NCBI GenBank assembly: GCA_026708645.1
Contig: JAPOUM010000026.1
Location: 66,997 to 130,996, forward strand
DNA length: 64,000 nt
Direction: 5' to 3'
Source: Acidimicrobiaceae bacterium
GTDB lineage: Bacteria > Actinomycetota > Acidimicrobiia > Acidimicrobiales > Aldehydirespiratoraceae
The first letter of the stretch is position 1. Each line of letters opens with the position of its first letter. Of the stretch, positions 853 through 64,000 are shown piece after piece. The translations under genes were made by a program, and so were the position numbers. Under the pieces are notes generated by a model. It saw nothing but the letters and a program-made list of their open reading frames with translations. It did not search any database and was not told where the DNA came from.

Positions 853-1407
853 TCAGGGCAGCATCCGCTGCATCACTACTACGTCTAGCCATTCGCCGAA
901 CTTGCGCCCGACTTCGCGCTCGATTCCCGCCTTCTCGAATCCCACGGCGGCGTGCAGCTGGATGGAGACGTCGTTGCCGGCGGCGATGCGCGCCAGCATC
1001 GTGTGGAACCCGCGGGCTTGCGCCAAAGCCACCAACTCCTGCATCAGTTTGCGTCCTATTCCACGGCCCTGCGCGGCGGCTTCCACGTAGACGCTCGACC
1101 CCACCGAGGTGCGATACGCAGCCCGTGGCCGGTATTCGCTCAGTGCCGAGAATCCCACCACCCGGCCGTTCGTCTCGGCCACCAGCACTCCGTGCGCCCC
1201 AACTCGCTTTCTCAGCCAGGCCTGCTGTTCGGCCAGGCTGCGGGGCACCAGATCGAAGGTGTGGGTGGTGTGCTCCACTTCGTGGTTGTAGATGCGCCGC
1301 AGCGCCTCGGCGTCGTCGACGGTGGCCAGCCTGACGACCACATCGTCTGAGTCGCCCGAGTCGTCCGGGTCTTCCGCCGAAGAGTGCGTCGCCTCCGGAG
1401 TGTCCAT
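853..1407 (-). CDS. GNAT N-acetyltransferase, phosphinothricin/methionine-sulfoximine acetyltransferase-like
   Basis: 184 aa. VRLATVDDAEALRRIYNHEV..THTFD, then the acetyl-CoA motif AQGRGIGRKLMQELV and FHTMLARIAAGNDVSIQLH..GF, typical of the PAT/MddA subfamily. Confidence 0.8.
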   Translation of the reverse strand: MDTPEATHSSAEDPDDSGDSDDVVVRLATVDDAEALRRIYNHEVEHTTHTFDLVPRSLAEQQAWLRKRVGAHGVLVAETNGRVVGFSALSEYRPRAAYRTSVGSSVYVEAAAQGRGIGRKLMQELVALAQARGFHTMLARIAAGNDVSIQLHAAVGFEKAGIEREVGRKFGEWLDVVVMQRMLP

Positions 1408-7391: not shown

Positions 7392-7558
7392 TCCCCGGTC
7401 GCCACCGGGCTCGGCTCGCCGCTGCCCAGGATCGCAAGGAACTCATCGGGCAATCTGACAAACGAACCATAGTAGCAGCTCAGGGTTAGGCTTTCGGGGT
7501 TAGGCTTAATGCAGGCAAGCGCTGCTTAGGATGGCCACATTCGATCGAAAGGTCTCCA

Positions 7559-9919
7559 ATGAAGGGTTCAGCAATGTCATTGAGGCGATACGGGTTTCGT
7601 GCGGGCGGCGGGCTCTTGTCATTGGTGCTGGTGGCTTCAGTGCTGGCCGTGAGCGCAGGCAGCGCCGCCGCCACCAGCGACACGCCCGACGAGAAGATCA
7701 ACCTGACGGCGTGTCTGGGCGAAGCGCTCGAAGACTGGGACTTCACCGACGTGTCCACTAGGCACGCCTTCTACGAGCCCATCAACTGCCTGGCCCACTA
7801 CGGCATCACCATCGGCAGCGGCGACGGCTCCACTTTCGCGCCCGACGAGCCCGTCAAGCGCTGGCAGATGATGCTGTTCCTGGCGCGGGCTCTGCAGCCT
7901 GTCAACGTGAAACTCGACGCCGCCCGCGACCAGAAATTCGTCGACGTCGACCATCTGGGCGCCGAAGCTCGTGATGCCATAAACCTGCTAGTCACCAACG
8001 GCATCGCCACGGCCGCTGTCAGCAGAGCCTTCGAGCCTGATGCCGTTGTTGACCGTGCCGAGATGGCTCTGCTGCTGATCCGGTTCCTCGATGCCGTGGG
8101 GTCGGTGGTCAATTTCGACAACAGAGGCAACATCTTGCTAGACGCCGACGCCGACGGCAGTCAGAGTCAGTCCGACGACTACTTCCAAGACGCTCGCGAC
8201 ACCGTGCCGGTGGCTGTTGACGCCGCTATCAGCGCCGCTTACGAGCTCGGCATCACCACCGGCGCCGGCCCCACCCCCGCTTCGGGCGGCGCCCAGCCCG
8301 GCTTGGACTTCTACTACCGGCCGCGCGACCCCGTCACCAGGGGTCAGATGGCGGCGTTCATAATTCGCACTCTGGCCCACACTCTGGCCCGACCGGAAGG
8401 GCTGAGCGCACAGTACGACGGCAACGAGATCAGAGTGTCGATCCGCGACAGAGACTTCGAGCCGGTAGTCGACGCTCCCGTCGATATGTTCTTCGTCGAA
8501 GCCGACGACGTCGAATTGGCTTTCACGTCCAGGGGCGTCTGCGATGAGGTCGATTTAGTCGACGGCTCAGAGCCCTGCGAGATCGACGGCTCAGACTTCA
8601 CCACAGACGACGACGGCGAAGTGTCGCTGACCGTTCCCCAGACCATTCTCGACGGCAACGACACCATGCTGTGGATCTGGACCGGTCGTGACGGCGAAGA
8701 AGTGGACCGCCGCACCGAACTGTTCGCCCTGGAAGTCGAGCCGTCGAGCCAGCCCCAAGGCGCCGTCTCGGCGAAAGTGTCCACAGCGTTCAGAGGTTCG
8801 AAGGCCCGATTCGGCACATCCGTCACCTTCACCGTCCAACTCTTAGACGCGCGCGGCAACGCCACCAACGCCGGCATCGACGGGCAGAACCCGGCCGAGT
8901 GGACGCTCACCGAGGAGTTGCTCCGTGAGAACCCGGCGGCGGATACCGTCAACGGCATCGCGGCCGGCAGCGGCGAGGGCCTACTGTCGAAGACCCCCAG
9001 GACGGTGAGGTCCGACAACAGAGGAAGGGTCACTTTCTCGTTGTCGGTCGGGGATCCGGACCGCAGTGCCTCCGGGCAGTCCCTCACCCGCACTTTCATG
9101 CTGGCGCCGCTGAACAACGCCCCCGCGGTCTCCGCCGACGATGGTTTCAGGATCAAGCTGAGTTCGGGCCGCACCGGCGGAGAGGTCTTCTATTTGGAGT
9201 TCAGCGACGCCGACCCCGTGCTGGGGAATTCGGTGGTGACGGTGACATCAACCAATCGTTATCGCAACGTCCCCTCGAGCGGCTCGGTGCGCAACAGCGC
9301 TGTCGTGTCGGTCTACGACGAGTACGGCCGGGCTCTGTCTGCTGCGAAGGTCAGACTCGCCAGCAGTTCCCGTGACACGACCATCAGCACCAACGCGTTC
9401 ACTGTCGGCCGCGACGGCATCCACCGCTTCTCTTACAGCTACAGAGGCGACGGCGGCATCGTCGAGACGCTCACCCCCACCGTCGACCCCGACGGCAAAT
9501 CCGAGACCGACAACAATCTCGAGGACCTCGAACCGGCTTACGTGTTCTGGCCCGTCCTCACTCAGGCGGCGAGCACCGAAGACGATCTGCCAGTCCTTTT
9601 CGCGGACCTCGACCGCAACTCGATCGTCTTTGACAGCGATGCCGACACCGACGGCGACGACTGGCCCGCAGGCGGGGCCACCGTACCGCGACGCCTGACC
9701 TACGACAGCAACGACCGATTCGACGTGCAGCAGGCGAATCAATCGAAGCCGCGGGCGGTGGCCGACATCGACGCGTTCGAGGAGGCTCTGGCTGAGGCCG
9801 TGGCCGAGGCGCCCGGCGACGACGCCGGCACTGGCGCCTGCCTGCAATGGAGCGGTTACGACTCGAGTCGCTCGCGGGTGGTCGCCCAGATCACGCTCAA
9901 GCTCACCGGCTGCTCTTAG
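7559..9919 (+). CDS. Secreted S-layer-homology (SLH) domain protein, paralogue 2
   Basis: 786 aa. Signal peptide ..LVLVASVLAVSAGSAAA, and the same three-SLH architecture (FTDVSTRHAFYEPINCLAHYGITIGSGDGSTFAPDEPVKRWQMMLFLARAL; ..VDRAEMALLLIRFL; ..PRDPVTRGQMAAFIIRTL). Collinear with the upstream paralogue. Confidence 0.8.
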   Translation: MKGSAMSLRRYGFRAGGGLLSLVLVASVLAVSAGSAAATSDTPDEKINLTACLGEALEDWDFTDVSTRHAFYEPINCLAHYGITIGSGDGSTFAPDEPVKRWQMMLFLARALQPVNVKLDAARDQKFVDVDHLGAEARDAINLLVTNGIATAAVSRAFEPDAVVDRAEMALLLIRFLDAVGSVVNFDNRGNILLDADADGSQSQSDDYFQDARDTVPVAVDAAISAAYELGITTGAGPTPASGGAQPGLDFYYRPRDPVTRGQMAAFIIRTLAHTLARPEGLSAQYDGNEIRVSIRDRDFEPVVDAPVDMFFVEADDVELAFTSRGVCDEVDLVDGSEPCEIDGSDFTTDDDGEVSLTVPQTILDGNDTMLWIWTGRDGEEVDRRTELFALEVEPSSQPQGAVSAKVSTAFRGSKARFGTSVTFTVQLLDARGNATNAGIDGQNPAEWTLTEELLRENPAADTVNGIAAGSGEGLLSKTPRTVRSDNRGRVTFSLSVGDPDRSASGQSLTRTFMLAPLNNAPAVSADDGFRIKLSSGRTGGEVFYLEFSDADPVLGNSVVTVTSTNRYRNVPSSGSVRNSAVVSVYDEYGRALSAAKVRLASSSRDTTISTNAFTVGRDGIHRFSYSYRGDGGIVETLTPTVDPDGKSETDNNLEDLEPAYVFWPVLTQAASTEDDLPVLFADLDRNSIVFDSDADTDGDDWPAGGATVPRRLTYDSNDRFDVQQANQSKPRAVADIDAFEEALAEAVAEAPGDDAGTGACLQWSGYDSSRSRVVAQITLKLTGCS

Positions 9920-11178: not shown

Positions 11179-12581
11179 AGCTGCGTCTCACTGTTCGCTC
11201 GTCCTCTGAGCGGCCCGGTTATCCGCAGCGGCAGTTTGCGAGGCCCGCGGATCTGTCCCGTCGACCATGTCACCGAGTCGGGATCGGCCAGCTCGAAATC
11301 GGGAACCCTCGCCATCCACTCCTCCAGAGCCACGGCCAGCTCCATGCGCGCCAGGTTCGAGCCCAGACAGCGGTGGATGCCCAGCCCGAAAGCGACATGC
11401 CGATTGCGACGGCGGTCGATGATGAACTCGCCGGCGTCCTCGAAAGCCTCCGGGTCGCGGTTGGCGGCGGGAAAAGGCAGCAGCACCCAGTCGTTGGCGT
11501 GCATCGACCGGCCGGCGAATTCGGTGTCGCCGGCCACGAGCCGGGCCATCGTGACCGGCGCATAGAACCTCAGGAACTCCTCCACAGCGAAGGGCCGCAC
11601 CTGTGGGTCGGCGATCCAGCGGCGCCGGTGCTCAGGATGCTGAGCCATGTGCCACAGCGAGGCGCCGATGGCCGACCAAGTGGTGTCCACCCCGGCGACT
11701 ATCAGCAAACCGCAGGTGCCCAGCACGTGATCGTGTTCCAGCGGCTGCCCGGCGATGGTCGCGTGGGTCATGTGGCTGATCAGATCGTCGCGAGGCTCTT
11801 CGGCGCGCTCAGCGATGAGTTTGTCGAGATAGTGGTCGATCGAGTCCTCGTATTCGACGCGCATCTCAGTGCCGGGCTGTTCCATGATCCGATGGATGAA
11901 CAGCCGGAACAACTCGCCGTCTGAGCGGGGCACGCCCAGCATGTCGGCGATCACCCTCACCGGGATGTGCTGCGTGTAGCACAAGGCCGCGTCGACGATG
12001 TCGCTGCGGCCCGTCTCCACGTCGCCCAGCAGCTCGTCCAGCAGTTCGCGGCAGGTCTGTCGAGTGGATTCACGCTTGGCTTCGATCGGCTTGGGAGCGA
12101 AAGCCGGCAGCAGGAACTCGCGGGCTATGCGATGGAACGGAGGGTCGCTGGTGATCGGCGGAGCGAAACCCACCGGCGCGGGTATCTCGGGCCGTCCGTC
12201 GTGAACCACCACGCCTTGAGAACTGAAAGTGTCGGTGTCCTTGGCGATGGCGCAGACGTCGGCGTGTCGAACCGGCAGCCAGGCGCCGCCGTAGCGGTCG
12301 CTGTGCGCCACGGGACACTCGCCGCGCAGCTGATCCCAGATTTCGGGGGCGTGGGCGGCGTAGTGAGGATCGACATGATCGAAGTCGCGGGCCCAGTCGC
12401 TCACCGGCTCTCGGGCCTGTGAACAGCCGTGCCCGTAGCCGCCAAGGTCTGCCGCGGCGCCCTCAGCAGCGCCGTCGTCGCCGGCGTGCTCCCCGAGCGC
12501 AGCCGTCGGCCAAGCCGCAGCCTCCGCAGCCTCCACGGGGTCTGCCGCGGCGCCCTCGAGAGTGCCGGTTGGTGCGGTCAT
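11175..12581 (-). CDS. Cytochrome P450
   Basis: 468 aa. I-helix LLIVAGVDTTWS, EEFLRFY (ExxR), and the heme-thiolate loop FGLGIHRCLGSNLARMEL (FxxGxHxCxG). The Ala/Gly-rich N-terminal ~55 aa may not all be translated. Confidence 0.9.
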   Translation of the reverse strand: MTAPTGTLEGAAADPVEAAEAAAWPTAALGEHAGDDGAAEGAAADLGGYGHGCSQAREPVSDWARDFDHVDPHYAAHAPEIWDQLRGECPVAHSDRYGGAWLPVRHADVCAIAKDTDTFSSQGVVVHDGRPEIPAPVGFAPPITSDPPFHRIAREFLLPAFAPKPIEAKRESTRQTCRELLDELLGDVETGRSDIVDAALCYTQHIPVRVIADMLGVPRSDGELFRLFIHRIMEQPGTEMRVEYEDSIDHYLDKLIAERAEEPRDDLISHMTHATIAGQPLEHDHVLGTCGLLIVAGVDTTWSAIGASLWHMAQHPEHRRRWIADPQVRPFAVEEFLRFYAPVTMARLVAGDTEFAGRSMHANDWVLLPFPAANRDPEAFEDAGEFIIDRRRNRHVAFGLGIHRCLGSNLARMELAVALEEWMARVPDFELADPDSVTWSTGQIRGPRKLPLRITGPLRGRANSETQL

Positions 12582-12682
12582 GGTATTGACGTCAACCTCC
12601 TTGGCAGTGCTGCGCGACCCGCCCCGACGCTAGCGCGCGGCACGCTGAGCCTGACTCGGCCGCCGAGTCGACGCTTCACGGC

Positions 12683-14305
<1,623 letters not shown>

Positions 14306-51624: not shown

Positions 51625-51717
51625 CTTGCTGTTGAAGAACAGCTTGATTTGATTTTTGAATAAGATTTTTGATTGAGATAGGTGTGAATGTCACACCCAT
51701 GTCCTATACTGTTGTTC
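51625..51717 (+). promoter_or_regulatory. Conserved upstream module of DUF222-HNH copy B: A+T-rich tract, palindrome GGTGTGA-N3-TCACACC, TATACT 7 nt before the ATG
   Basis: ..GATTTTTGATTGAGATAGGTGTGAATGTCACACCCATGTCCTATACTGTTGTTC-ATG. Palindrome at 51681-51697, TATACT at 51705-51710, ATG at 51718. Near-identical to the module at 40272-40365 on the opposite strand. Confidence 0.6.
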
Positions 51718-53580
51718 ATGGTTTTGGAAGCCGTCGAACGAGCCGAAACAGCCGCCGCCGACCTGCTGGCCGCGGTCAACGCAGGTGCTGCGTCCACCGC
51801 CGAATTGTGCAGGGTGCTGGCCGCGACCCGATGCATCGCAGCCGCGGTCAACGCCGCGCAGACCGTCGCCGCGGAGTTGATCGCCCGGCGGGAGCGTCAC
51901 GGCGACGGCGGCACCGAGATACTGGCGTCGGCTGCGGGGCTGTCTCAGCGGGCGGCCCATGATCAGGTCGCCACAGCCGCGGCGCTGCGTCAGGTGCCGA
52001 GACTGCGTGACGCGGTGCAAGCCGGTGACGTGCCGCAGGCCAACGCTCGGCGTTTGGCTGACGCGATCACCAAGACCGGCCCTGAGGCCGTCGCTGGCGA
52101 CTCGGAGTTGTTGGCGCAAGCTCAGTCGATGCGTCCCGAGCAGTTCGCAAAAACCGCGCAACGCTGGATCGGGGCGCAACAGGCTGATGGCGGCACAGCG
52201 GAGTATCTGCGCCAGCGCGCCAAGCGGTATCTGAGGATATTCGACACAGACGACGGGATGGTGTGCCTGCACGGCGAGTTCGACAAGATCACCGGCACAC
52301 GCCTGCACAACCGGCTGCGCCACACTGCCAGCAGACTGCTCGACGCCGACAAGAAACTCCCCGAGGAGCAGCGACGCAAGTTCCCGCAGTGCATGGCAGA
52401 CGCCTTGCAGCACTACACCACCCGAACAAGCCCCGGCGGCGGTCAGAACGCAGCCACCGCAAACAGCAGCACCGGCTGCGGACGAGATCGTCGCGGCGGA
52501 GACGCAGCGGCCAGTGACGCCCCGGTGAGCAGCGTCTGCGCCAGCCGCGCGACCGCAAGCCCAGGCAACGCCAGCGGTGACGGAGACAGCGACGGTCGCG
52601 TCAGGAATCTCCGAGAACTCGGGATCGCAGGCCCAGGCAACGGTGACAGCACCGGTTGCGGGTGCGCTCCACCCCCTTGCAACACAGACGCCGCGACCCG
52701 CATCGGCGCGGGACTCGACGGCAGCGGAGACGCTCGAACCGGCAACCCACAAACCGGCGAGACAGCCACAACCAGCAGCGGAAACGCGTCCGGCGGCACA
52801 GCCACCGGCTGCGGCGATCCGGAGGCTGGACCCGCCAGCGCAGAAACCTGTCACGGCGCCGGTTGCGGTTGTGCTCAACCCCCTCGTAATACAGACGCTG
52901 GCAAAGCTGCGGTCATCGGCAACGTTGACAGCGCCGTGACCGGCGCGGCCGACGACGATGACGCAAACGCCGGCAGCGCCACAGGTGGTGGTGGCGCCGC
53001 TGCCGGTTGGGTCGCTGACATCACGGTGCTGGCCCATGTGGACGACGCCACCGGCGAACTGATCGGCGAATTGTCTGACGGATCGAAACTCCCGGCAGCA
53101 GTGCTCGAAGAACTGTCGTGCAATGCTCGCTGGGCCGGGTTGGTGTTCGACCGTGCCGGTGACGCGATCTGGCGCAGCCGGTCACGACGCACAGTCACAG
53201 ACACGCAATGGCAGGCCCTGCTCGCTACATATGGCGGCTGCTTCCACTGCGGTGCGCCGGCGGGCATGTGCCAAGCTCATCACATCACCCCCTACTCACA
53301 AGGAGGCGCCACCAACCTCAAGAATCTGATCATGGTCTGCTGGAACTGCCACCACAAGATCCATCACCACAACTGGCAGATCGAAAAGCATCTCGACGGC
53401 AGTCACAGCCTGCACCCGCCCGACGACACAGCCACAGCCACGAATCCCCGTTACGGGCCGGCCCACGCCCAAGAACCAGAACCCCCGCAGCGTCGAAAGC
53501 GACCGCCGGCCAGACCTGAGAACACAACACAGCGGACCAGAACCCGCGCCAGAGATCCGGCGTCGGCCACGCTGTGGTGA
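51718..53580 (+). CDS. DUF222 / HNH endonuclease protein (REP13E12-like), copy B
   Basis: Start at ATG 51718 (MVLEAVERAE.., parallel to MVLEDARQAA.. of copy A). Long blocks are near-identical to copy A (ELIARRERHGDGG(A/T)EILAS..SMRPEQFAKTAQRWIG..DDGMVCLHGEFDKITGTR..AGWVADITVLAHVD..CFHCGAPAGMCQAHHITPYSQGG..LIMVCWNCHHKIHHHNW). The low-complexity middle is divergent. Confidence 0.9.
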   Translation: MVLEAVERAETAAADLLAAVNAGAASTAELCRVLAATRCIAAAVNAAQTVAAELIARRERHGDGGTEILASAAGLSQRAAHDQVATAAALRQVPRLRDAVQAGDVPQANARRLADAITKTGPEAVAGDSELLAQAQSMRPEQFAKTAQRWIGAQQADGGTAEYLRQRAKRYLRIFDTDDGMVCLHGEFDKITGTRLHNRLRHTASRLLDADKKLPEEQRRKFPQCMADALQHYTTRTSPGGGQNAATANSSTGCGRDRRGGDAAASDAPVSSVCASRATASPGNASGDGDSDGRVRNLRELGIAGPGNGDSTGCGCAPPPCNTDAATRIGAGLDGSGDARTGNPQTGETATTSSGNASGGTATGCGDPEAGPASAETCHGAGCGCAQPPRNTDAGKAAVIGNVDSAVTGAADDDDANAGSATGGGGAAAGWVADITVLAHVDDATGELIGELSDGSKLPAAVLEELSCNARWAGLVFDRAGDAIWRSRSRRTVTDTQWQALLATYGGCFHCGAPAGMCQAHHITPYSQGGATNLKNLIMVCWNCHHKIHHHNWQIEKHLDGSHSLHPPDDTATATNPRYGPAHAQEPEPPQRRKRPPARPENTTQRTRTRARDPASATLW

Positions 53581-55102: not shown

Positions 55103-56386
55103 TCAGCTCAAGGCGCCGACGATCAGTTCGGTGTTGGTGCGCAGGAAGCCGAGGTAGGTGTCAGCGCCGCTGCCCGGGGGTCCCAGGCTGCCTGTGTAGA
55201 GGGTCACCACTTCGATGTCGCCCACTCGGGCGGCCAGCGCCTCGGCGTCGTCACTGGTGTGCTGGGTCTCGGCGAAGATGGCTTGGATCCCTTCGTGCTC
55301 GATGAGCTCTGCAAGTTCCTCAAGCTGCGCCGGATTGGTTTGCGCCATAGATGACGGGCTCGGGATGACTGCGCCGATCACCTCCACTTCGTAACGGTCG
55401 GCGTAGTAGCCGAGAGCATCGTGGTTGGTCACCAGCTTGCGATTCTCAGCAGGCAACTGCGCGACGCTGGCTGCGATCTCGGCATCGACAGCCTCCAACT
55501 CGGCCTGGTAGATGTCCGCACAGGCTTGCAATTCGGCTGCGTCGATCCCGGCCTCGGTGTTCAGCACCCTCACTAGGTCAGGCAGTGCCTCGGCCACGCG
55601 ATGCGGATCGAACCATACATGGGGGTCACCGCCGCTGTGGTCGTGGCCATGGTGGTCGTGGCCTTCGTGGTCGTCGTGTTCGTCGTGGTCCTCTTCGTCT
55701 GAGTGTTCGTCGTGGTCGTGGCCTTCGTGGTCGTCGTGTTCGTCGTGGCTCTCTTCGTCTGAGTGTTCGTCGTGGTCGTGGCCTTCGTGGTCGTCGTGTT
55801 CGTCGTGGCTCTCTTCGTCTGAGTGTTCGTCGTGGTCGTGGCCTTCGTGGTCGTCGTGGCCGGATCCGAATGAGTAGGGGATCGTGTCCACTGCCTCTGC
55901 GACCTCGAAGACCGGAGTTCCCGCCTCAGCCACTGACTCGAGTGTGTCGAGGAGCCGCTCCTCCAAAGCGAGGCCGTTGGCCACAACGAGCGCGGCGTCC
56001 TCCATGCGTCCCCTGTCCTGCAAGGACGGCTCGTAGCCGTGGGGGTCTCCACCAACCGGGATGAGCGCCTCCACGTTGGCGAGCCCGCCGCAAGCCACAT
56101 TGGACACCACGTCAGCCCAGATGCCGGTGGTCGCAACGATGGTGGGCGCATCCTCATCGACTTGCATCGGTTCGTCGGCTTGCTCGCTGGAGGAGTCGTC
56201 AGAGCAGGCCGACGCTGCGAGAAATACAGCGGCTGCTACGGAGGCGGGCCTCAGCAGGCCTCGCCAACTCCCTCTGATGCCGGTTCGAGAATGTTCCGGC
56301 AGATTCGTCGATCGACGCACGGCTAGGCTCCTTCGGTGACGCTCAACATGCCGTGGCACTATAATGAGAGCGAGTCTTATTTCCAA
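55103..56386 (-). CDS. znuA: Metal (probably zinc) ABC transporter substrate-binding lipoprotein with an expanded His/Asp/Glu-rich loop
   Basis: Lipobox AAAVFLAASAC-SDD. Cluster A-I SBP blocks (IVATTGIWADVV..GGDPHGYEPS..DPHVWFDP..LVTNHDALGYY..IFAETQ). The loop is HDDHEGHDHDEHSDEESHDE repeated about 3 times (60-bp DNA period). The true start is probably downstream of ATG 56386 (GTG 56347 or 56320). Confidence 0.88.
   Translation of the reverse strand: MEIRLALIIVPRHVERHRRSLAVRRSTNLPEHSRTGIRGSWRGLLRPASVAAAVFLAASACSDDSSSEQADEPMQVDEDAPTIVATTGIWADVVSNVACGGLANVEALIPVGGDPHGYEPSLQDRGRMEDAALVVANGLALEERLLDTLESVAEAGTPVFEVAEAVDTIPYSFGSGHDDHEGHDHDEHSDEESHDEHDDHEGHDHDEHSDEESHDEHDDHEGHDHDEHSDEEDHDEHDDHEGHDHHGHDHSGGDPHVWFDPHRVAEALPDLVRVLNTEAGIDAAELQACADIYQAELEAVDAEIAASVAQLPAENRKLVTNHDALGYYADRYEVEVIGAVIPSPSSMAQTNPAQLEELAELIEHEGIQAIFAETQHTSDDAEALAARVGDIEVVTLYTGSLGPPGSGADTYLGFLRTNTELIVGALS
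56363..56381. promoter_or_regulatory. Candidate Zur operator: imperfect inverted repeat AATGAGA-N5-TCTTATT overlapping a TATAAT hexamer
   Basis: This is the only A+T-rich patch in the znuA/zur divergent region. Half-sites match 6/7. TATAAT lies at 56359-56364 on the plus strand, ~40 nt upstream of the zur start. It is not a close match to the TGAAAATNATTTTCA-type consensus. Confidence 0.3.
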
Positions 56387-56871: not shown

Positions 56872-57018
56872 CAGCAGTCGTTGTAGTTGTTGTAGTCGGC
56901 CCCACCCCGCCTCAGCCGCTTCTCGACCGCCCGCGACCCCAACCTCACGCGAACCGGCACCCAGCCGACCGACCGCAGAAATAATAATTATTAGCTCGCC
57001 CGGTGCCTCGGAATTGCA

Positions 57019-57043
57019 GTAAGTAATAATATTTATTACTTAC
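57019..57043. promoter_or_regulatory. Perfect A+T-rich palindrome GTAAGTAATAA-TAT-TTATTACTTAC at the left border of the low-G+C island
   Basis: 11-bp arms with a 3-nt centre. It lies inside an A+T-rich stretch (..GAAATAATAATTATTAGC.. at ~56978) about 100 nt upstream of the first island ORF. Confidence 0.7.
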
Positions 57044-57141
57044 AGAATTTCTTGCATGTTCTCGTGCGGTTGCTGGAGGACGCTGGCATTCGTTTCGTCG
57101 GAGGCGATCACAGACGGCGGCTTTTCGTGAGTGCGTCGTGA

Positions 57142-57540
57142 GTGGGTAGGTTGTCGCCAGTGGGGGTATTCGATGCACTCCGTGCGTCGCTCGGCTACGA
57201 GTACTCGAGGGGATCGTGGTTCTGGGTGCCGGTGAGCGAAGCCCGAGCGGCCCGCGGCGTGAGGCCTTTCGGACAGGGCAAGACACGGCCCGTGGTCTTG
57301 GCCACACGATTAGGCCCGGACGCGGTCTTGTTCCCGCGCTCCACCAAGCCGTCGAGTTTTCGCCATGACGCCCACCGCCACGCACCCGATCCACCCTGTC
57401 GGATCGACAGGCCTGGCTGGGTCCCGCTGCACCTGCGAGCGGTCGTGGACCTGCAACTCCTCAACGAAGAGTCCTACTCGTGCGAAGAGCCCGAAGGCTC
57501 GCAGTTGTTCGGCGCCATGCTCGAGGCGCTGCGGCCATGA
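57142..57540 (+). CDS. Small protein with PemK/MazF-like sequence pattern (island operon gene 1)
   Basis: 132 aa, GTG start. ..RGSWFWVPVSE..GKTRPVVLATRLGPDAVLFPRSTKPS..GWVPLHLRAVVDLQLLNE.. resembles the MazF/PemK order (GDIWxV.., K/TRPxVVL, hhxP.T.., late V.hdqhr..d). The assignment is tentative. Confidence 0.4.
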   Translation: MGRLSPVGVFDALRASLGYEYSRGSWFWVPVSEARAARGVRPFGQGKTRPVVLATRLGPDAVLFPRSTKPSSFRHDAHRHAPDPPCRIDRPGWVPLHLRAVVDLQLLNEESYSCEEPEGSQLFGAMLEALRP

Positions 57541-58091
57541 CTCCACAGGATCGGCAAGTCAACTTCGCGGATCTGCGTCGGGAGCACGAAGCCGCGACCA
57601 TCGGTCCGCTGCTGTGGGCGCTGACCGTCGAGTTGGCCGGGATGGTCGGGCGCCGCTACAGGCCCGCGGAGTACAACGGGGGCGCGCCGTGGGACAAGGC
57701 ATCGATCGAAGAGCTCGCGCAGCAGACTGCGGTGGACCTGCTGATCGGGGAAGGCCAGATCGACTACATCTTCACGGTTGCTGACAGCACTGAGGATGTC
57801 AGGCGGTTGCTCACTCGCAACGTGAAGCGAGCTCTGTGGCGCCGCCGTTCTCCGACCGTCGTCGACAGACTGAAAGGGCGTGCTTGCGAGATGGCGTCGC
57901 AGCCGCCCTTGGCCATCGAGTATGTTGGGTCGCGCCGGTGGATCACCAGTTCAGGCGACCCCGGCGCTCCTCGCGAATTGAGCGATGCCGAGTTGCGGCG
58001 CGCCGCTGCTGCCGCGCGTCGGATTCCGAGACTGATCGAACGCGAAGGAGCTGAGCGGGCCTCGATGGTCTACTCGCCGGGCATGCTGTGA
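57537..58091 (+). CDS. Hypothetical protein with sigma-70 region-2-like segment (island operon gene 2)
   Basis: ATG 57537 overlaps the gene-1 stop (ATGA). ..ELAQQTAVDLLIGEGQIDYIF..EDVRRLLTRNVKRALWRRRS resembles the ECF sigma region 2.1-2.4 pattern (..Qe.f..l...f.....WL..ia.n...d..Rrr). Confidence 0.5.
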   Translation: MTPQDRQVNFADLRREHEAATIGPLLWALTVELAGMVGRRYRPAEYNGGAPWDKASIEELAQQTAVDLLIGEGQIDYIFTVADSTEDVRRLLTRNVKRALWRRRSPTVVDRLKGRACEMASQPPLAIEYVGSRRWITSSGDPGAPRELSDAELRRAAAAARRIPRLIEREGAERASMVYSPGML

Positions 58092-58103
58092 GAGCTGCTG
58101 CAT

Positions 58104-58529
58104 GTGGTGATTGGTGAGACTGACGGCATCTTCGACAGCGATCTGGAAAGGGTTTTCAAGATTCTGGTCGCATCGTGGCTTCCACCGTCCCTTGTATCTG
58201 ATGAAGGCAGCGACTCTGCTGAAAGCGTCGCAAGCGGAACAGCCGCCGAGGAAGGAATGGAGCGCTACGAGATGGAATCGGCAGTTCAAGATCTGGTGGT
58301 GTCAATGACTGCTGAGGATCTGGCGGTGTTCGTCAGCAAAGCGCAAGGAGTGTCCGACAGCGCGGTGGCCGAGCGGCTCGGACGCTCTAGGCGCTGGGTT
58401 GCGGAGCGCAAGCAGGCCGTCCTCGAACGCACCGACGAGATGTTCAGAGACCGCGTGCCCGCAGGCGCGCAGGATCTGGCCGCGACCCGACTGCTGGAAC
58501 TCGCCAGTGACGCACTGGGGGAGACGTAG
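58104..58529 (+). CDS. Hypothetical protein with sigma-70 region-4-like HTH (island operon gene 3)
   Basis: GTG 58104, in the same reading frame as gene 2 and separated from it only by TGA 58089-58091 plus four sense codons. ..MTAEDLAVFVSKAQGVSDSAVAERLGRSRRWVAERKQAVLER.. fits a region 4.2 / LuxR-like HTH. Confidence 0.5.
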   Translation: MVIGETDGIFDSDLERVFKILVASWLPPSLVSDEGSDSAESVASGTAAEEGMERYEMESAVQDLVVSMTAEDLAVFVSKAQGVSDSAVAERLGRSRRWVAERKQAVLERTDEMFRDRVPAGAQDLAATRLLELASDALGET

Positions 58530-58531
58530 CA

Positions 58532-59458
58532 ATGACTGCTTCAAGGGAACGAGACGGGAACTCGCGACACGGCGCGAGCACGAGTCCGGGCGCCGGTGAG
58601 ACCGCGCCGGTGAACGAAGCCGTGGCGACAGCCTGCGCGACCCGCACCGCTGCGGCTGCTGGCGCGTCCGTGGCTGCTGGCGCAGCGACCTCAGCGTCGC
58701 TTGAAGGCGCGGCTCGTCGTCGGCGGGTGGAGCGGGGCGATGTCCGCGTGGTCGAGCCGCTGGCGTGGCAGAGGGGCGCCAGGCGGATAGCGGTTGTGTG
58801 TCGTGTCGACCCTGACTGTGAAATAGCCGAAATGATGCTGGCCCATCCTTGGCCTGAACTCGCCACCGACACCGACGCTGTCGTTGCTAGCGAAGACTCT
58901 GGTCTGCCGTTCCCTCTGGTGGTCGAGTGCTATGTGCGAAACCCGGTGTGGTTGTGGCAAGTCTTTGAGCGTTTAGGCGGCTTTACCGAATCTCAGATGA
59001 ATGCTGTCGGTGAAGCAGTGATTGATGACAACCCGATGGCTGAAGGGGTTTACACAGGTCTGCCGCTCGCCGGACCTGCTGATGCCCGCTGGAGTTTCAA
59101 AGCTCAGGAGATCACTGAATGGAGAACTATCACTGAAGATTGCTTCACTGTGCTGCTTGACGGTGATCGTGTTTGGCAGTTCGACCGTGACCGACTGCAG
59201 CCGGATACTTACGGCGAGTCGTCGGAGGATGTTCTATCGCTGCAAAGCCGTGAGCGTCTTGCCGAGACGATCCACCAGATCGCAACACGTCCGATGTCTG
59301 TCGCAGTGGATGACATTGATACGGAGGCTCTTGACTTTGAGTGCTGGTCTGAGCACCTCGGCCGAGATGCTGGCATGGACGTATTCGCAGCCTTTCAACC
59401 GTTATTTGATAAAGCGTTATCGCAGTCTTATGAAACACTGCAGAAGGAAGCTGTCTGA
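58532..59458 (+). CDS. Hypothetical protein, no recognisable domain (island operon gene 4)
   Basis: 308 aa, ATG 2 nt after the gene-3 stop. Ala-rich, low-complexity N-terminal ~75 aa, then a globular region (..AHPWPELATDTDAVV..PFPLVVECYVRNPVWLWQVF..). Base composition becomes visibly A+T-richer from ~58.95 kb. Confidence 0.55.
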   Translation: MTASRERDGNSRHGASTSPGAGETAPVNEAVATACATRTAAAAGASVAAGAATSASLEGAARRRRVERGDVRVVEPLAWQRGARRIAVVCRVDPDCEIAEMMLAHPWPELATDTDAVVASEDSGLPFPLVVECYVRNPVWLWQVFERLGGFTESQMNAVGEAVIDDNPMAEGVYTGLPLAGPADARWSFKAQEITEWRTITEDCFTVLLDGDRVWQFDRDRLQPDTYGESSEDVLSLQSRERLAETIHQIATRPMSVAVDDIDTEALDFECWSEHLGRDAGMDVFAAFQPLFDKALSQSYETLQKEAV

Positions 59459-59461
59459 GCT

Positions 59462-61291
59462 ATGCCATCGTTCCCGCTACGATCTATCGAAGTCACAAAC
59501 TTCAAGTCGATTGCCCACGGTAAGGTTGATTTCAGGCCATTGACTGTGCTAGTCGGCCAGAACAGCGCAGGCAAGAGTTCGCTCCTGCAGACATTGAGAT
59601 TCTTGTCACAGACAGCAGCAACTAGCAAGTCCGGGATAGAAGTGCCGCTGAACGGCACCAAGTTACGATTGGGCACCTTCGACGATGTCCGCACATCTGG
59701 TGCCGAAGGTTCGATATCGGTGCGTGCTAATCTGTCCACTGCACCGCATCGCACTTCTGATAATGATGAGGTCGGGTCGGAAGTGCAATTGAAGATCGAA
59801 GCGGCACCACCCGAAGAGAACCCCGAAAGCGGCTACGCCCATCTCGCTGTAAATGACCTGGAAGTGTCAGACTCTGTAGCTCTCTGGTGCGCTGAGGTAT
59901 GGATTCAGGCTGTTTGGAGTCGAGTCAGAGAAACCGTGCTGGAGGCAGCCGGGGAGCAGTCTTGCGAATCTTTTGGTCATCCAGGTATAGGTATAGATGC
60001 CGACTGGGATTCGGAGCGGCAAACAGAATGTGAAGATACTGATTTTTATCACCCGGTTGACGATAGAGAGCCAGTCGAATCTTGGTTGCGCGGCTGGCTA
60101 TTAAAAAAATCTGGACTTGATCAATACCAGAACTCATCTGAGCCGCTGTCTGTCGATATGTCAGCTAGACAAGAATCACTTCTCTTGGCGAGTAGTGACG
60201 ATATTCGAGGCGCTTTTGAAACTGTCTATAATTTGGGTTCCGTTGATCCAAGCTATAGAGTCAAAATAATTCATGATCGAGTTCTGCGTTATTCACTCGA
60301 TGACATGGCTCGACTAGCCTTATCCATGATCGAACTTGGAGGCTTGTACTTTGAAGATAACCCATACCATGATAAAGATGACAGTGATTCTTGGTATGTA
60401 AATCCCGAGAGATTGCTCATGACTGACTTCACTAAAATTGCTCATCAACTTGTCTCAGCGATTGTGGATGACGAATGGACACGAGACCCGTCACTGCGAC
60501 AGTGGGCTGATAGTGCTGTTGCAGAAAGGCAGAGGCCCGCTGTTGCCAACATGCTCCGAGACCATGTCCGTTATCTGGGGCCGCTGAGACAGGAACCGCG
60601 CCCCTTCTTCGACATTGATGATGAGGATCGTCTGGACGTCGGTGCTGCCGGTCAGCACTTGGCGCGTGTGCTGCAGTGGCATGGAACCAGGACGGTCGAT
60701 GTGCCTGAACTAGGAAAGGTCGACTTGGTTGATGGCTTGCAGCGTTGGCTGCGTAAACTGGGCGTGATCGACGAGGTCGCTGTGGAGGCTCGAGGCCGCG
60801 CCGGGGTCAGTGTTGAGGTGCGCCCCCCCGACCTGGATCGCCGGGTTGACCTCACGTCGGTCGGTGTCGGCATCAGTCAAGTGCTGCCGGTTCTGGTGGT
60901 TTGCTTGCTGGCCGATCCGGGCGACCTCGTGCTGTTGGAGCAACCGGAACTGCATCTGCATCCGGCGCTTCAGATGCGCCTCGCCGACTTTCTGCTTGCT
61001 TGCGTAGAGAGCGGACGGCAGATCATCGTCGAGACACACAGCGAGAATCTCGTCAACCGGCTCAGGCGCCGCGTCGCCGAAGACGACACCAGCGACACCG
61101 CTGGACTCGTCCGCGTCGTGTTCGCTGAACGAAATGCCGAAGGACACACGACGTTCCGGCCGTCGGACATCAACCCGCTGGGCGGACTCAGCCAAGATTG
61201 GCCAGACGGATTCCTAGATCTCGGCGCCCGTGACGCCCAGAAACTCCTGCGAGCCGGCCTCGCCAAGCATCGCCGCCTCAAGTCTGCTTGA
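59462..61291 (+). CDS. ABC-type (AAA_15/AAA_21-like) ATPase with DUF3696-type C-terminus (island operon gene 5)
   Basis: 609 aa. IEVTNFKSI..LTVLVGQNSAGKSSLLQTL (Walker A), a long ~400-aa insert, YLGPLRQEPRPFF..VGAAGQH, GVGISQVLPVLV (signature-like), LVLLEQPELHLHP (Walker B/D-loop), IVETHSENL (H-loop), and the C-terminal ..DWPDGFLD typical of DUF3696. Confidence 0.85.
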   Translation: MPSFPLRSIEVTNFKSIAHGKVDFRPLTVLVGQNSAGKSSLLQTLRFLSQTAATSKSGIEVPLNGTKLRLGTFDDVRTSGAEGSISVRANLSTAPHRTSDNDEVGSEVQLKIEAAPPEENPESGYAHLAVNDLEVSDSVALWCAEVWIQAVWSRVRETVLEAAGEQSCESFGHPGIGIDADWDSERQTECEDTDFYHPVDDREPVESWLRGWLLKKSGLDQYQNSSEPLSVDMSARQESLLLASSDDIRGAFETVYNLGSVDPSYRVKIIHDRVLRYSLDDMARLALSMIELGGLYFEDNPYHDKDDSDSWYVNPERLLMTDFTKIAHQLVSAIVDDEWTRDPSLRQWADSAVAERQRPAVANMLRDHVRYLGPLRQEPRPFFDIDDEDRLDVGAAGQHLARVLQWHGTRTVDVPELGKVDLVDGLQRWLRKLGVIDEVAVEARGRAGVSVEVRPPDLDRRVDLTSVGVGISQVLPVLVVCLLADPGDLVLLEQPELHLHPALQMRLADFLLACVESGRQIIVETHSENLVNRLRRRVAEDDTSDTAGLVRVVFAERNAEGHTTFRPSDINPLGGLSQDWPDGFLDLGARDAQKLLRAGLAKHRRLKSA

Positions 61292-61384
61292 CAAGCTGGG
61301 ACACAGGCGTCGATCCGGCCGATCAGCCAGCCACAGCGTGAAGTCGATATCTCTAGGCGGCGGAGGGAAGGGCGTCGTAGGCGT

Positions 61385-61843
61385 CTATTGTCCGGACAGG
61401 GCTGCTTGCACGGCTTCTTGGACTTTGTCGGCAGCTTCCTCGGGGTCTTCGTGCTCCCAGAAGCGCAGCACGGTCCACCCGGCTTGCTCCAGGTAGGCGG
61501 TGGTCTCTCGATCGCGCTCGGCATTGCGCGCGATCTTGGCTGCCCAGTATTCGGAGTTGGTCGCCGGTTGGGTGTGATGCTCGGGGCATCCATGCCAATA
61601 GCAGCCATCGACGAAAACGGCTATGCGGGTCTTGCGCAGCACTAGATCAGCGGTGCGAGCCAGTTCCGGCTGGGGTCTGACCGACACCCGGAATCTGATG
61701 CCGCGACGATGCACGGCAGAGCGCACCGCCATCTCGGGGCCGGTGTCGCGGCTCCGGTTCGCCTGCATGGATCTGCGAGTGCCCGGCGATGAAGCCCAAG
61801 ACTCTTTGCCTGAGCCTGTTCCCACCTCCCAGACCGTACTCAC
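61385..61843 (-). CDS. vsr: Very-short-patch repair endonuclease
   Basis: ..RRSMQANRSRDTGPEMAVRSAVHRRGIRFRV..ADLVLRKTRIAVFVDGCYWHGCPEH..PATNSEYWAAKIARNAERDRE..AGWTVLRFWEHE matches the Vsr blocks (TxPE, FVDGCFWHGC, N..yW..KI..N..RD, W.v...WE). Start uncertain (GTG 61843, GTG 61834 or ATG 61768). Confidence 0.88.
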   Translation of the reverse strand: MSTVWEVGTGSGKESWASSPGTRRSMQANRSRDTGPEMAVRSAVHRRGIRFRVSVRPQPELARTADLVLRKTRIAVFVDGCYWHGCPEHHTQPATNSEYWAAKIARNAERDRETTAYLEQAGWTVLRFWEHEDPEEAADKVQEAVQAALSGQ

Positions 61844-61975
61844 TGCCCCCTGCCGGCGCCGAAGCCGGGCGGCGAGGGGGACCGTCCCAGAGGCCCGACA
61901 AAGACTGCTGCACCGGCAGCGCGGTTGTGGCACCGGGTCGTGTCTAATGTCACACGACAGCGTTACGGTGGGGTG

Positions 61976-62631
61976 ATGTCAGTTCCGCTCAACCTTGACG
62001 GCTTGAAGGCTGCGGCCGTCGATTTTGCCGCGTCGCTTCGCGGCGCGCCGATCCGCGAGCTGTTCGGCAGGACAGATGGCAAGGCGCTGGGCACCTGGGT
62101 CGAGGCGAACTTCAAGGAGTTTCTTGCAGAGCGGCACGCGTATGAGTCTGGAAATGCAGCTAGCGGAATCGACTTCCCGGAACTGGAGGTTGATCTCAAG
62201 GCGACATTCATAAAGCAGCCTCAGTCATCGTGTCCGTTCAGAGATGCAGCGCAGAAATTTTCGGTTTGGGTTACGGCCTTCTGGTGCTCGTGTACGAGAA
62301 GACCGACATAAGCGAGACCGAGTCTGCGGTGATCGATGTTCGTCACGCCCTTTTTATCGATCGGTCAAGGACCGGCGACTACCAGACGACTAGGGGAATC
62401 CTTGAAATCCTAGACCGAGCCGGTAACTCCGACGATCTCGTTGCCTTTATGGAGGATCGCAATCTGCCGCTAGACGAAGTAGGCCGCACGGCCTTGGCTG
62501 ATCGAGTTCTCCGAGACCCTCCGACACAGGGCTACCTCACGATCAGCAACGCACTGCAGTGGAGGCTCCAGTATGGCCACGCAATCACGAACGCAGGAGT
62601 GGCCGAAGGTGTGCAAAACCTTGTCTCGTAA
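61976..62631 (+). pseudogene. PD-(D/E)XK type II restriction endonuclease, interrupted by a 1-nt frameshift at an A3T4 run
   Basis: ORF 61925..62311 (from ATG 61976: MSVPLNLDG..SGIDFPELEVDLKATFIKQPQSS..AAQK) continues in the -1 frame as ..IFGLGYGLLVLVYEKTD..TISNALQWRL (ORF 62230..62631). The frames meet at CAGAAATTTTC (62252-62262). GID..EVDLK fits D..(D/E)xK. Confidence 0.6.
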
Positions 62632-64000
62632 GGAGCTTGGCGACTTCCAGACGCCTCGGGAGCTTGCATTCGAGTGCGCTCAAGTTCTGGCAAAGATCCA
62701 GCGCGGCACTCGCCGGGTGCTGGAACCGACATGCGGTGAGGGGAGCTTCATGTTGGCCGCGGCATCGGTCTTCGGTCCCTCAATCGAAATGCTGGGCGTA
62801 GAGATACAACCCGCTCATGCCGCCGCGGCGCGTCGCCTGCTCAACTGCTCGGCTACCAGAGACGTTGACTGGCGAGTCGAGGAGGGCGATATGTTCCGAC
62901 ACGACTTGAGCACGCTCATGTGGGAGACTGAAGGACCACTGCTAGTCCTCGGAAATCCGCCATGGGTCACATTGTCTGATCTAGGTGCGATGGGCTCAAT
63001 CCATATCCCCGACCGCACGAATCTGCGTTCCGTGCGGGGGATCGATGCACTTACGGGTGAATCGAACTTTGATGTCGCCGAGTACATCTGGATGCGGCTA
63101 CTCACGGAACTGCGTCAGGAGGAGCCGACAGTCGCTCTCCTCTGCAAGACTTCTGTGGCTCGTCGGGTCCTTGCGTTGGCAGCTCATCTGAATTTGCATG
63201 TGGCTGATTCGTTCTTATGGCGAATCGACGCGAAGAAGGCGTTCGGCGTAGCAGTTGATGCTTGCTTTTTCGCTATTCAGCTAGATGGAGCTAGTCACAA
63301 CTATCGGTGCAGGGTTTTCGAGTCATTGGATGCAAGCTCTCCAGTGAGCACCATGGGTTTGGTCGATGGTGCGCTTGTTGCTGATGTGGATGCCCACTCG
63401 GCGTCTCGACATTACGACGGATCGTCGCCGGTTGAGTGGCGACAAGGCGTCAAACATGACTTGGCGTCTATCATGGAACTTCGCACCGACGATGGCGGTA
63501 AACTCCAAAACGCTCTCGGCGAGGTCGTAGAGATCGAAGACGACTGGGTATATCCACTCCTCAAAGGCTCTGATGTGAACGCAGGTCGAGCCCCGCAACG
63601 ATACGTGATCGTTACTCAGCGATCTCTGGCAGACGAAACTAGGAGTCTCCGACACTCAGCCCCCAAGCTTTGGAATTATCTGCAGATCCATGCGGAGCAG
63701 TTCGCTGCTCGCAAATCGTCGATCTATCGAAACCGAGCAGCCTTCTCAATGTTCGGAATCGGGCCTTACACATTCGCGTCATGGAAAGTAGTTGTCTCGG
63801 GCTTCCATAAAGCCCCTAGGTTCCGGTTGTTAGGTCTAAGTGAGAGCAAGCCTGTTCTACTAGACGACACATCGTACTTCTTGCCGTGCGAATCAGCGGC
63901 CGAGGCTGCCATCCTTCTGAGTGCGCTGAATAGTGGTGCCGCTACTCTCCTTCTCAGGTCTTTGCTGTTCGCTGACGCTAAGCGACCGGTGACGAAAAAG
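62573..64000 (+). CDS. Gamma-class amino (probably N6-adenine) DNA methyltransferase; 3' end runs off the right edge
   Basis: Own translation in frame 2 from ATG 62573, with no stop to the window end: MATQSRTQEWPKVCKTLSRKELGDFQTPRELAFECAQVL..RVLEPTCGEGSFMLAAA (motif I) ..PLLVLGNPPWVTLSDLG (motif IV, NPPW) ..ESNFDVAEYIWMRLL..ALLCKTSVARRVL, followed by a long target-recognition region. Not in the supplied ORF track. Confidence 0.8.
   Translation, partial: MATQSRTQEWPKVCKTLSRKELGDFQTPRELAFECAQVLAKIQRGTRRVLEPTCGEGSFMLAAASVFGPSIEMLGVEIQPAHAAAARRLLNCSATRDVDWRVEEGDMFRHDLSTLMWETEGPLLVLGNPPWVTLSDLGAMGSIHIPDRTNLRSVRGIDALTGESNFDVAEYIWMRLLTELRQEEPTVALLCKTSVARRVLALAAHLNLHVADSFLWRIDAKKAFGVAVDACFFAIQLDGASHNYRCRVFESLDASSPVSTMGLVDGALVADVDAHSASRHYDGSSPVEWRQGVKHDLASIMELRTDDGGKLQNALGEVVEIEDDWVYPLLKGSDVNAGRAPQRYVIVTQRSLADETRSLRHSAPKLWNYLQIHAEQFAARKSSIYRNRAAFSMFGIGPYTFASWKVVVSGFHKAPRFRLLGLSESKPVLLDDTSYFLPCESAAEAAILLSALNSGAATLLLRSLLFADAKRPVTKK

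Follow-up and report, generated by a model that had tools for sequence, protein, structure and literature searches.

A cassette encoding an ABC ATPase and a MazF-fold protein in a probable, partly decayed defence island of a sponge-associated Acidimicrobiaceae bacterium

Introduction

The described defence systems closest to the locus of this study each place an ABC ATPase alongside a separate toxin-like effector. In Menshen, NsnB is predicted to be a transducer that clamps the effector NsnC via its DUF3696 tail, and the Walker B motif of NsnB has EN (PMC12065111). In HEC-03, an ABC ATPase is combined with a PIN toxin-like RNase; the system has been experimentally validated, and both genes are needed (Payne et al., bioRxiv 10.1101/2024.01.29.577857). 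The locus considered here is a cassette of four genes, A-BC-D-E, in which E is an ABC ATPase and D has a MazF-fold domain. It lies near the right end of a stretch of 64,000 nucleotides, referred to throughout as the window, from contig JAPOUM010000026.1 (assembly GCA_026708645.1, positions 66,997 to 130,996 of the forward strand). In the literature as searchable, no system made up of an ABC ATPase and a MazF-fold protein is described; an earlier mention in the ABC-ATPase classification of Krishnan et al. 2020 is possible.

The segment that holds the cassette is probably a small, partly decayed defence island, conserved between strains and specific to the lineage, between zur and a Macro-domain gene; its three units are the cassette, vsr and an NspV-like type II restriction-modification system. 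The content and extent of the segment, which are given below, are held with high confidence. The island itself is ordinary, and the new part is the cassette, which is unannotated in the databases searched and is plausibly a relative of the ABC-ATPase/effector defence systems.

The host is a sponge-associated Acidimicrobiaceae bacterium, and its closest Zur loci are found among metagenome-assembled genomes from sponge metagenomes. Exact-protein look-ups recovered identical DNA (99.97-100%) in six other assemblies, two of which reach further right than the window. A sister strain is represented by a 2.48-Mb contig of another sample; it is 98.9% identical over the island and both flanks and carries the island at the same site.

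The cassette and its distribution

The open reading frames (ORFs) of the cassette are tightly packed on the plus strand, and the features of the cassette are as follows.

57142-57540, plus strand: gene A, 132 amino acids (aa), the first gene of the cassette, with the motifs RPVVLAT, PRST, HxAHxH and YSCEEPE
57537-58529, plus strand: gene BC, 331 codons, split by an in-frame TGA at 58089-58091 into ORF B (57537-58091) and ORF C (58104-58529)
58532-59458, plus strand: gene D, 308 aa, with a disordered N-terminus, a MazF/PemK-fold domain and a C-terminal helical domain (120 aa)
58724-59056, plus strand: MazF/PemK-fold domain of D (residues ~65-175), from AlphaFold2 and Foldseek
59462-61291, plus strand: gene E, 609 aa, an ABC ATPase of the OLD-ABC/NsnB type (AAA_15 7e-26, AAA_21 2e-25)
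59555-59581, plus strand: Walker A motif of E, GQNSAGKSS
59744-60541, plus strand: hypervariable insert of E (residues ~95-360), with large indels and flanked by conserved ends
60923-60949, plus strand: Walker B motif of E, LVLLEQPE, with EQ in place of DE
about 61115-61219, plus strand: DUF3696-like C-terminal helix of E, a below-threshold match

The original prediction, made from the sequence of the window, described a five-gene operon that included vsr. The operon has four genes, as B and C are a single gene interrupted by the TGA, and vsr is on the opposite strand. The same order, A-BC-D-E, is found tightly packed in 13 of 13 related loci of other genomes, which consist of a small A, a single protein of 321-335 aa, D, and an ATPase of 650-740 aa. 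The embedded genes without known function are not separate systems, but partners of the ATPase in one conserved cassette.

The cassette is present at six chromosomal sites: between zur and the Macro-domain gene, MOSC and DUF4268, AllG and AAA_14, NUDIX and AlkZ/LeuRS, Metallophos/AAA_15 and HisG, and between transporter genes. It travels between genomes as a single block. Defence or mobile genes are neighbours at some of the sites (RloB/AAA_21; Abi_C/DUF5131/ISL3; Metallophos with a large AAA_15 protein). Clustering at 90% identity among 5.8 billion proteins gives 21 clusters for A, 48 for BC and 36 for D, while the BC family has 375 representatives at E <= 1e-3 among 1.84 billion. Pfam has no family for A or D, and BC gives weak helix-turn-helix (HTH) models alone.

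Two of the related loci have frame changes, at 3316-3685 of L011 and 8634-9136 of L122, which affect A in both and BC in L122. L011 is a long-read contig of 5x coverage, and its frame changes may be sequencing error or more natural inactivation of the same genes.

Comparison with known systems

The best PADLOC match of E is NsnB of Menshen (3.4e-67, 225.6 bits, model positions 107-344 of 345) and the second best is HEC-03B (4.7e-49), followed by PDC-M55A (2.7e-41); weaker matches to AriA, GajA, PtuA and Old cover the ATPase core alone. E and NsnB are both OLD-ABC-type ATPases with a degenerate Walker B motif (EQ in E, EN in NsnB) and a short C-terminal DUF3696-like helix, which in E is sub-threshold. 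Each is part of an operon of several genes that also encodes a protein binding DNA and one with a toxin fold, and each of the two systems has strongly polymorphic regions. However, searches with Pfam and PADLOC find neither the ParB/DUF262 protein NsnA nor the inPIN nuclease NsnC in the cassette, where the partners are a protein with a LuxR/sigma-4 HTH, a MazF-fold protein and the small A. E is 609-740 aa in length with a hypervariable insert of 250-380 aa, whereas the NsnB model has 345 positions, and the polymorphism of the cassette is inside the ATPase rather than in the partners.

In HEC-03, too, an ATPase is coupled to a protein with the fold of a toxin-antitoxin (TA) RNase, but the toxin fold of the cassette is MazF/PemK, not PIN, and there are two extra genes (A and BC). 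No PIN match was found in A to D, and no sequence match to the HEC-03 partner. With the defining partners absent, the cassette belongs to neither Menshen nor HEC-03. Septu (PtuAB), PARIS (AriAB), Gabija (GajAB) and the OLD nucleases share the layout of an AAA_15/AAA_21 ATPase with an effector, but the cassette has no TOPRIM, HNH or helicase partner. Residues 65-175 of D share the fold of the MazF/PemK/Kid toxins; in D, unlike these, the fold is joined to a helical domain of 120 aa and preceded by a disordered N-terminus, and D has no sequence-level similarity to them and is always encoded with an ABC ATPase. There is also no gene for a MazE/PemI-type antitoxin, as none of the neighbouring genes matches an antitoxin family.

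The ATPase

The Walker B motif of ABC ATPases usually has DE. In E the sequence LLEQPE is invariant in four of the four sequences compared, and by analogy with E-to-Q mutants the EQ would allow ATP to be bound with slow or no hydrolysis. This suggests that E acts as an ATP-bound switch. The original prediction of an ABC/DUF3696 ATPase was right as to the ABC ATPase, but the tail matches DUF3696 (PF12476) below threshold, the last 83 residues of E scoring 18.5 bits (E 0.0024) against a gathering score of 22.

Between the window strain and the sister strain, 30 codons of E are changed, and 26 of these are in residues 338-483 (15 non-synonymous, 11 synonymous). Most of the nucleotide differences in the gene (28 of 37) fall within 60475-60908, where divergence is ~6%, compared to ~0.3% in the 5' 1 kb. 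This stretch looks like a recombination tract at the point where the variable insert meets the conserved C-terminal half of the ATPase.

Automated gene calls in three loci (L120, L037 and L123) contain just the C-terminal ~200-310 aa of E. The E sequences of L037 and L123 align over their full length, and a truncation of E in L120 was set aside as a gene-calling artefact, the 609-codon ORF being intact at 12315-14141 of that locus. The low-G+C 5' two-thirds of E escape the gene callers, as seen in L120, and the cassette may therefore be overlooked in automated annotation.

The MazF-fold protein

The AlphaFold2 model of D has a predicted local distance difference test score (pLDDT) of 82, with the core above 90. 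When the model is compared to the PDB with Foldseek, 50 of the top 50 matches are MazF-family toxins (MazF, YdcE/EndoA, MoxT), with a best E of 6.1e-5, a probability of 1.0 and template modelling (TM) scores, normalized to the target, of 0.58-0.74. The matches include MazF-mt1, MazF-mt3 and MazF-mt9, as well as MazF from S. aureus and B. subtilis. The invariant residues R85 and T112 of D could be the equivalents of the catalytic Arg/Thr pair of MazF. At the level of sequence, D matches nothing in Pfam with E values as high as 10, PemK_toxin included, a profile search of the PDB is empty, and hhalign gives E 0.2 against three MazF sequences.

A standalone homologue of the MazF-fold domain of D, 149 aa in length, is encoded on the Mycobacterium intracellulare plasmid NZ_CP084587.1 (hhalign probability 97.5%). 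It lies between hypothetical proteins of 370 and 78 aa (5725-7620 of locus L119), near annotated PemK/MazF and AbiEii toxins and with no ATPase. The plasmid gene may represent the module in an ancestral or minimal state. Its 370-aa neighbour was considered as a homologue of BC and rejected, as no homology was found.

The HTH protein and its two nonsense mutations

ORFs B and C are in phase, and together they cover single proteins of 321-334 aa from end to end. At the position of the TGA the relatives have Lys, Arg or Glu, and among the 48 BC clusters the window product (184 aa) is alone in stopping here, most others being ~321-335 aa in length. The sister strain has CGA (Arg) at 58089, so the TGA of the window is a C-to-T nonsense mutation. 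The BC gene of the sister strain has a nonsense mutation of its own, TGG to TGA at the family-invariant Trp52, and since the nonsense codon is different in each strain, BC has been hit twice independently. All of the codon changes between the strains in this gene are non-synonymous (six, with no synonymous change). The double loss hints that BC is costly or dispensable.

From its N-terminus, BC consists of a helical domain, a small beta region and, at the C-terminus, an HTH of the LuxR/sigma-70-region-4 type. A profile of the family matches FixJ (3.7e-6), extracytoplasmic function (ECF) sigma (8e-4) and SigF region 4 (3e-3) in the PDB; in Pfam, Sigma70_r4 or r4_2 is found in 7 of 64 members and GerE likewise in 7 of 64. 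Taken from sequence, these HTH matches indicate the superfamily only, and do not separate sigma from LuxR. The AlphaFold2 model of BC has a pLDDT of 78.

Gene A and the intergenic region

Gene A is directly upstream of BC in 13 of the 13 related loci. It has no match in Pfam (E up to 10) or the PDB, hhalign gives no significant match to the three MazF sequences, and hhalign of A against D provides no link to MazF. The same set of sequences is also non-significant for D, whose fold is that of MazF. A MazF-like fold is suspected for A from the motifs RPVVLAT and PRST, which recall MazF. In the sister strain there is a 12-nt in-frame duplication at 57339 in A, with PRSTKPSTKPSS in place of PRSTKPSS, within the conserved PRST motif.

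Between zur and A there are two palindromes.

56872-57141, plus strand: zur-A intergenic region, with two AT-rich palindromes that share the half-site TAATAA
56982-56993: box 1, palindrome TAATAATTATTA, occurring once in the 64 kb against a chance expectation of 0
57019-57043: box 2, perfect 11-3-11 palindrome, likewise occurring once in the 64 kb against a chance expectation of 0

The intergenic region is probably the promoter/operator of the cassette. A similar AT-rich patch is present ahead of gene A in L008/L009, from a genome of 68% G+C. The region has 16 differences in ~170 nt between the window and the sister strain, in which box 1 is disrupted but box 2 retains its core, GTAATAATATTTATTAC. 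A reading of the palindromes as Zur/Fur boxes was set aside: the TAATAA half-site does not match the actinobacterial Zur box, which is TGAAAATCATTTTCA-like, and the boxes are downstream of zur and face A. A scan for sigma-70-type promoters found nothing, and is uninformative for this phylum.

Possible function of the cassette

If the cassette is active in defence, the insert of E, which is long and hypervariable, would be the likely sensor of infection. D would be the likely effector, with RNA cleavage leading to growth arrest, or else an adaptor held by the DUF3696-like tail of E; the D-E arrangement is proposed by parallel with NsnB holding NsnC and with the HEC-03 ATPase and its VapC-like PIN protein. 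BC would likely be an autoregulator acting on the upstream AT-rich palindromes, or a DNA-sensing subunit. Tentatively, A-BC-D-E could be an undescribed abortive-infection system in which E senses via its insert and then releases or activates the MazF-fold effector, with BC as regulator or DNA sensor. Whether the cassette is an anti-phage system working as proposed is close to an even call, falling just on the doubtful side.

Several points weigh against a role in defence. The PADLOC scan suggested by the original prediction matched E and the methyltransferase described below, but there is no PADLOC family for A, BC or D, so the assignment to defence draws on the ATPase and the context. The context is itself inconsistent, because in one lineage the cassette is at a conserved site amid housekeeping genes (NUDIX ... 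AlkZ-like/LeuRS), and at another site there are transporter genes on both sides. The MazF-fold domain of D has no detectable sequence similarity to MazF. Searches of 50,697 phage genomes and of IMG/VR contigs returned nothing for D, and an origin from phages or viruses was set aside. The top Foldseek matches of whole BC are almost all sigma factors, and are weak (best E 0.046, TM ~0.2-0.3), as is the likeness of the N-terminal domain to sigma. Finally, the paired nonsense mutations of BC could mean that the cassette is being lost and is non-functional here.

The first alternative is that the cassette is a TA-like addiction or stress module, in which D, and perhaps A, would be a MazF-type toxin, BC the DNA-binding antitoxin and autorepressor and E an accessory ATPase, the restriction-modification (R-M) neighbour being coincidental to a variable spot of the chromosome. 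The MazF fold of D fits such a module, as do the D-like protein that stands alone in the TA-rich plasmid region of Mycobacterium without an ATPase, the HTH of BC, which is like that of many antitoxins and has palindromes upstream, and the housekeeping flanks at several of the cassette sites. Against this, two independent nonsense mutations in the antitoxin of an active toxin should kill the cell unless the toxin had been lost as well, but a single residue separates the D proteins of the two strains, and both strains keep A and E intact. An ABC ATPase of 609-730 aa with a hypervariable insert is always present, which is a hallmark of defence sensors rather than of TA pairs. A module may serve both functions, as many TA modules act in abortive infection, and a TA-like module as such is considered unlikely.

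A host regulatory module with no role against phage, which would control host genes through a sigma-like BC, with D and A as anti-sigma-type partners and E as an ATP-dependent switch, is much less credible still. The sigma factors among the structural matches of BC, with a Foldseek probability of 0.97 for region 4, the Sigma70_r4 or r4_2 matches of some members of the family and the fixed housekeeping site in one lineage would suit a regulator. However, there is no sequence match to Sigma70_r2 in BC and the structural E-values of the whole protein are weak; the cassette is rare (36-48 clusters) and its six sites are unrelated; the other known members of the clade of E are from defence systems; and independent knockouts of BC in two strains are unexpected for a regulator that is needed. 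The presence of the ATPase in every case, the number of cassette sites and the independent losses of BC in the two strains make these alternatives, and also the reading without an island that is considered below, less consistent with the data than a relative of the ABC-ATPase/effector defence systems.

The vsr and R-M genes

Downstream of the cassette, the segment contains vsr, a frameshifted endonuclease and an amino-methyltransferase, in agreement with the original prediction; the endonuclease, there given as a PD-(D/E)XK nuclease, can be placed in the NspV family.

61385-61843, extendable to 61933, minus strand: vsr, a very-short-patch repair (T:G mismatch) endonuclease (TIGR00632)
61976-62631, plus strand: NspV-family type II endonuclease, frameshifted (PF27258, NF052465)
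62573-64000, ending at window-equivalent 64222, plus strand: amino-methyltransferase with an NPPW motif, 549 aa, intact (PADLOC MTase_II PDLC03310)

The match of vsr to TIGR00632 is strong (E 3.9e-37, 127.2 bits against a cut-off of 97.85). The ten substitutions that separate it from the sister strain are all synonymous (0 non-synonymous and 9 synonymous codon changes), which indicates purifying selection, and judged by its sequence vsr is functional. Vsr is usually paired with a C5-cytosine methyltransferase. No PCQxFS-type C5-methyltransferase motif was found in any frame of the 64-kb window and the 7-kb right flank, so vsr is without an obvious partner.

The NF052465 match of the endonuclease is split between two frames (positions 1-90, then 88-209). 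The run of A at 62255-62257 has three residues in the window strain and four in the sister strain, where the protein is intact with 218 aa, and the frameshift is identical in all six assemblies of the window strain. The methyltransferase matches MTase_II PDLC03310 at 5.3e-123 and N6_Mtase at 3.4e-5, and the complete ORF is present in L002/L003; it has 3 non-synonymous and 5 synonymous changes relative to the sister strain. With the endonuclease frameshifted, the methyltransferase is an orphan. The endonuclease, methyltransferase and vsr all match the families of NspV-type II R-M systems with an adjacent Vsr; the locus differs from these in the frameshift of the window strain and in the lack of a C5-cytosine methyltransferase nearby. 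With BC cut by the TGA as well, the island of the window strain is partly decayed.

Extent and composition of the segment

On the left, the neighbour of the island is zur (FUR family). The segment extends from 56.9 kb to the stop of the methyltransferase at window-equivalent 64222, and to the right of this there are a Macro-domain gene, YqeC, an amine oxidase and UbiX/UbiD, at a G+C of 0.66-0.71. The island is therefore ~7.3 kb in length. The original prediction had placed the right border beyond the window; rightward extension found it 222 bp past the end, followed by housekeeping genes at the G+C of the host. No integrase or transposase was found at the island and there is no tRNA within 20 kb, in agreement with what had been reported for the visible border, and the perfect palindrome reported there is exact. 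A search of the flanks for att sites, in the form of direct or inverted repeats, gave just short matches at chance level.

Mean G+C of the 64-kb window is 65%, and the 500-nt windows upstream of 56.9 kb that served as background have a G+C of 0.663 +/- 0.029 with a minimum of 0.552. Two A+T-rich stretches had been predicted, and both are found in the sliding-window G+C profile. At 59.0-60.8 kb the G+C is 0.44-0.54 (z -4 to -7.5), the lowest of the whole window. At 62-64 kb it is 0.53-0.60, with the windows across 62.9-64.0 kb at 0.53-0.55, under the background minimum (z ~ -4). Low G+C is restricted to the 3' half of D, the hypervariable part of E and the R-M genes. The G+C and the G+C at third codon positions (GC3) do not bear out a uniformly low-G+C island: the stretches at 57.1-58.9 and 60.6-62.0 kb are host-like (G+C 0.62-0.72, GC3 0.68-0.77), which is about half of the segment. 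Nor is the abrupt change of composition claimed at 56975 borne out; an AT-rich patch is present at 56975-57050, but it spans just ~80 nt and the sequence from 57.1 to 58.9 kb is host-like.

Within E the GC3 is 0.66-0.78 in the 3' third and 0.34-0.40 in the insert, compared to 0.74-0.84 in znuB, znuA and zur. Among the related cassettes the dip in G+C is strong in L007, which is one of the two closest relatives, mild in three loci and absent in two. Because the dip varies in this way, the first low-G+C patch is read as a recombining module of foreign derivation inside the cassette and not as an island border. The low-G+C patches are a fast-evolving, recombining insert of E and separately acquired R-M genes, and not a signature of the island as a whole.

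In 18 loci with znuBA-zur (Zur 47-78% identical) there are no island genes within 10 kb downstream, so the case that would have spoken against the original prediction, the same genes at this site in distant relatives, was not found. The 18 relatives also lack the right-flank genes after zur, and no empty site can be defined. A scan of metagenome contigs for the Macro protein is uninformative: it gave 80 loci, of at most 72% identity, and zur, YqeC and the island genes are missing from all of them. As there is neither an empty site nor a mobility signature, the insertion is read solely from absence in relatives, and this also weighs against an island. The prediction of a defence island is thus upheld in its R-M genes, Vsr, NsnB/HEC-03-like ATPase and absence after zur in the 18 relatives, but the island is partly dead and its insertion is read indirectly.

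That there is no island at all, and that this is ordinary chromosome of the species with low-G+C patches from local constraints (the amino acids of the E insert, the R-M genes), would agree with the host-like half of the segment, the lack of mobility genes, tRNA, repeats or an empty site and the same genes at the same site in the sister strain, but is the least probable of all the readings, because the drop in GC3 of the E insert concerns synonymous positions and cannot be explained by amino-acid composition, the genes are absent downstream of zur in the relatives, the same cassette is at five other chromosomal sites in other genomes, and R-M systems and cassettes of this kind are typically part of the accessory genome.

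Variation in neighbouring sequences

Outside the island, znuA has a 60-bp tandem repeat at 55652-55858 on the minus strand (3.5 copies, 98% identity) that codes for the His/Asp/Glu-rich loop of a ZnuA-like zinc-binding protein. It is precisely at this repeat that the BLAST alignment of the two strains is interrupted, which suggests variation in copy number. At 51688-53580 on the plus strand there is an ORF of 630 aa whose counterpart in the sister strain is an HNH-domain protein of 522 aa, the two differing by an internal indel of ~330 bp near 52507-52839. A pair of PIN toxin and PhdYeFM antitoxin genes is found upstream of znuBA at ~49.9-50.5 kb (2780-3402 of L120). A variable, conflict-related region may reach both sides of znuBA-zur. 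Further away, the 500-nt window of lowest G+C outside the island (0.552) is at 401-900, ahead of a GNAT-like ORF (853-1407, minus strand) and tRNA-Arg (1675-1747); it may be a further acquired segment or an intergenic region.

Implications

The two strains are a natural experiment, with a nonsense mutation of BC in each, the endonuclease lost in one and vsr kept. They provide direct evidence of the turnover of defence genes within one species of sponge symbiont. If the cassette does defend its host, then MazF would be the third toxin fold, after PIN and BECR, among the effectors of NsnB-type ATPases. The variable sensor would in that case be within the ATPase and not in a partner protein, and the cassette would represent a new branch of these systems with an effector that is hidden from sequence searches.

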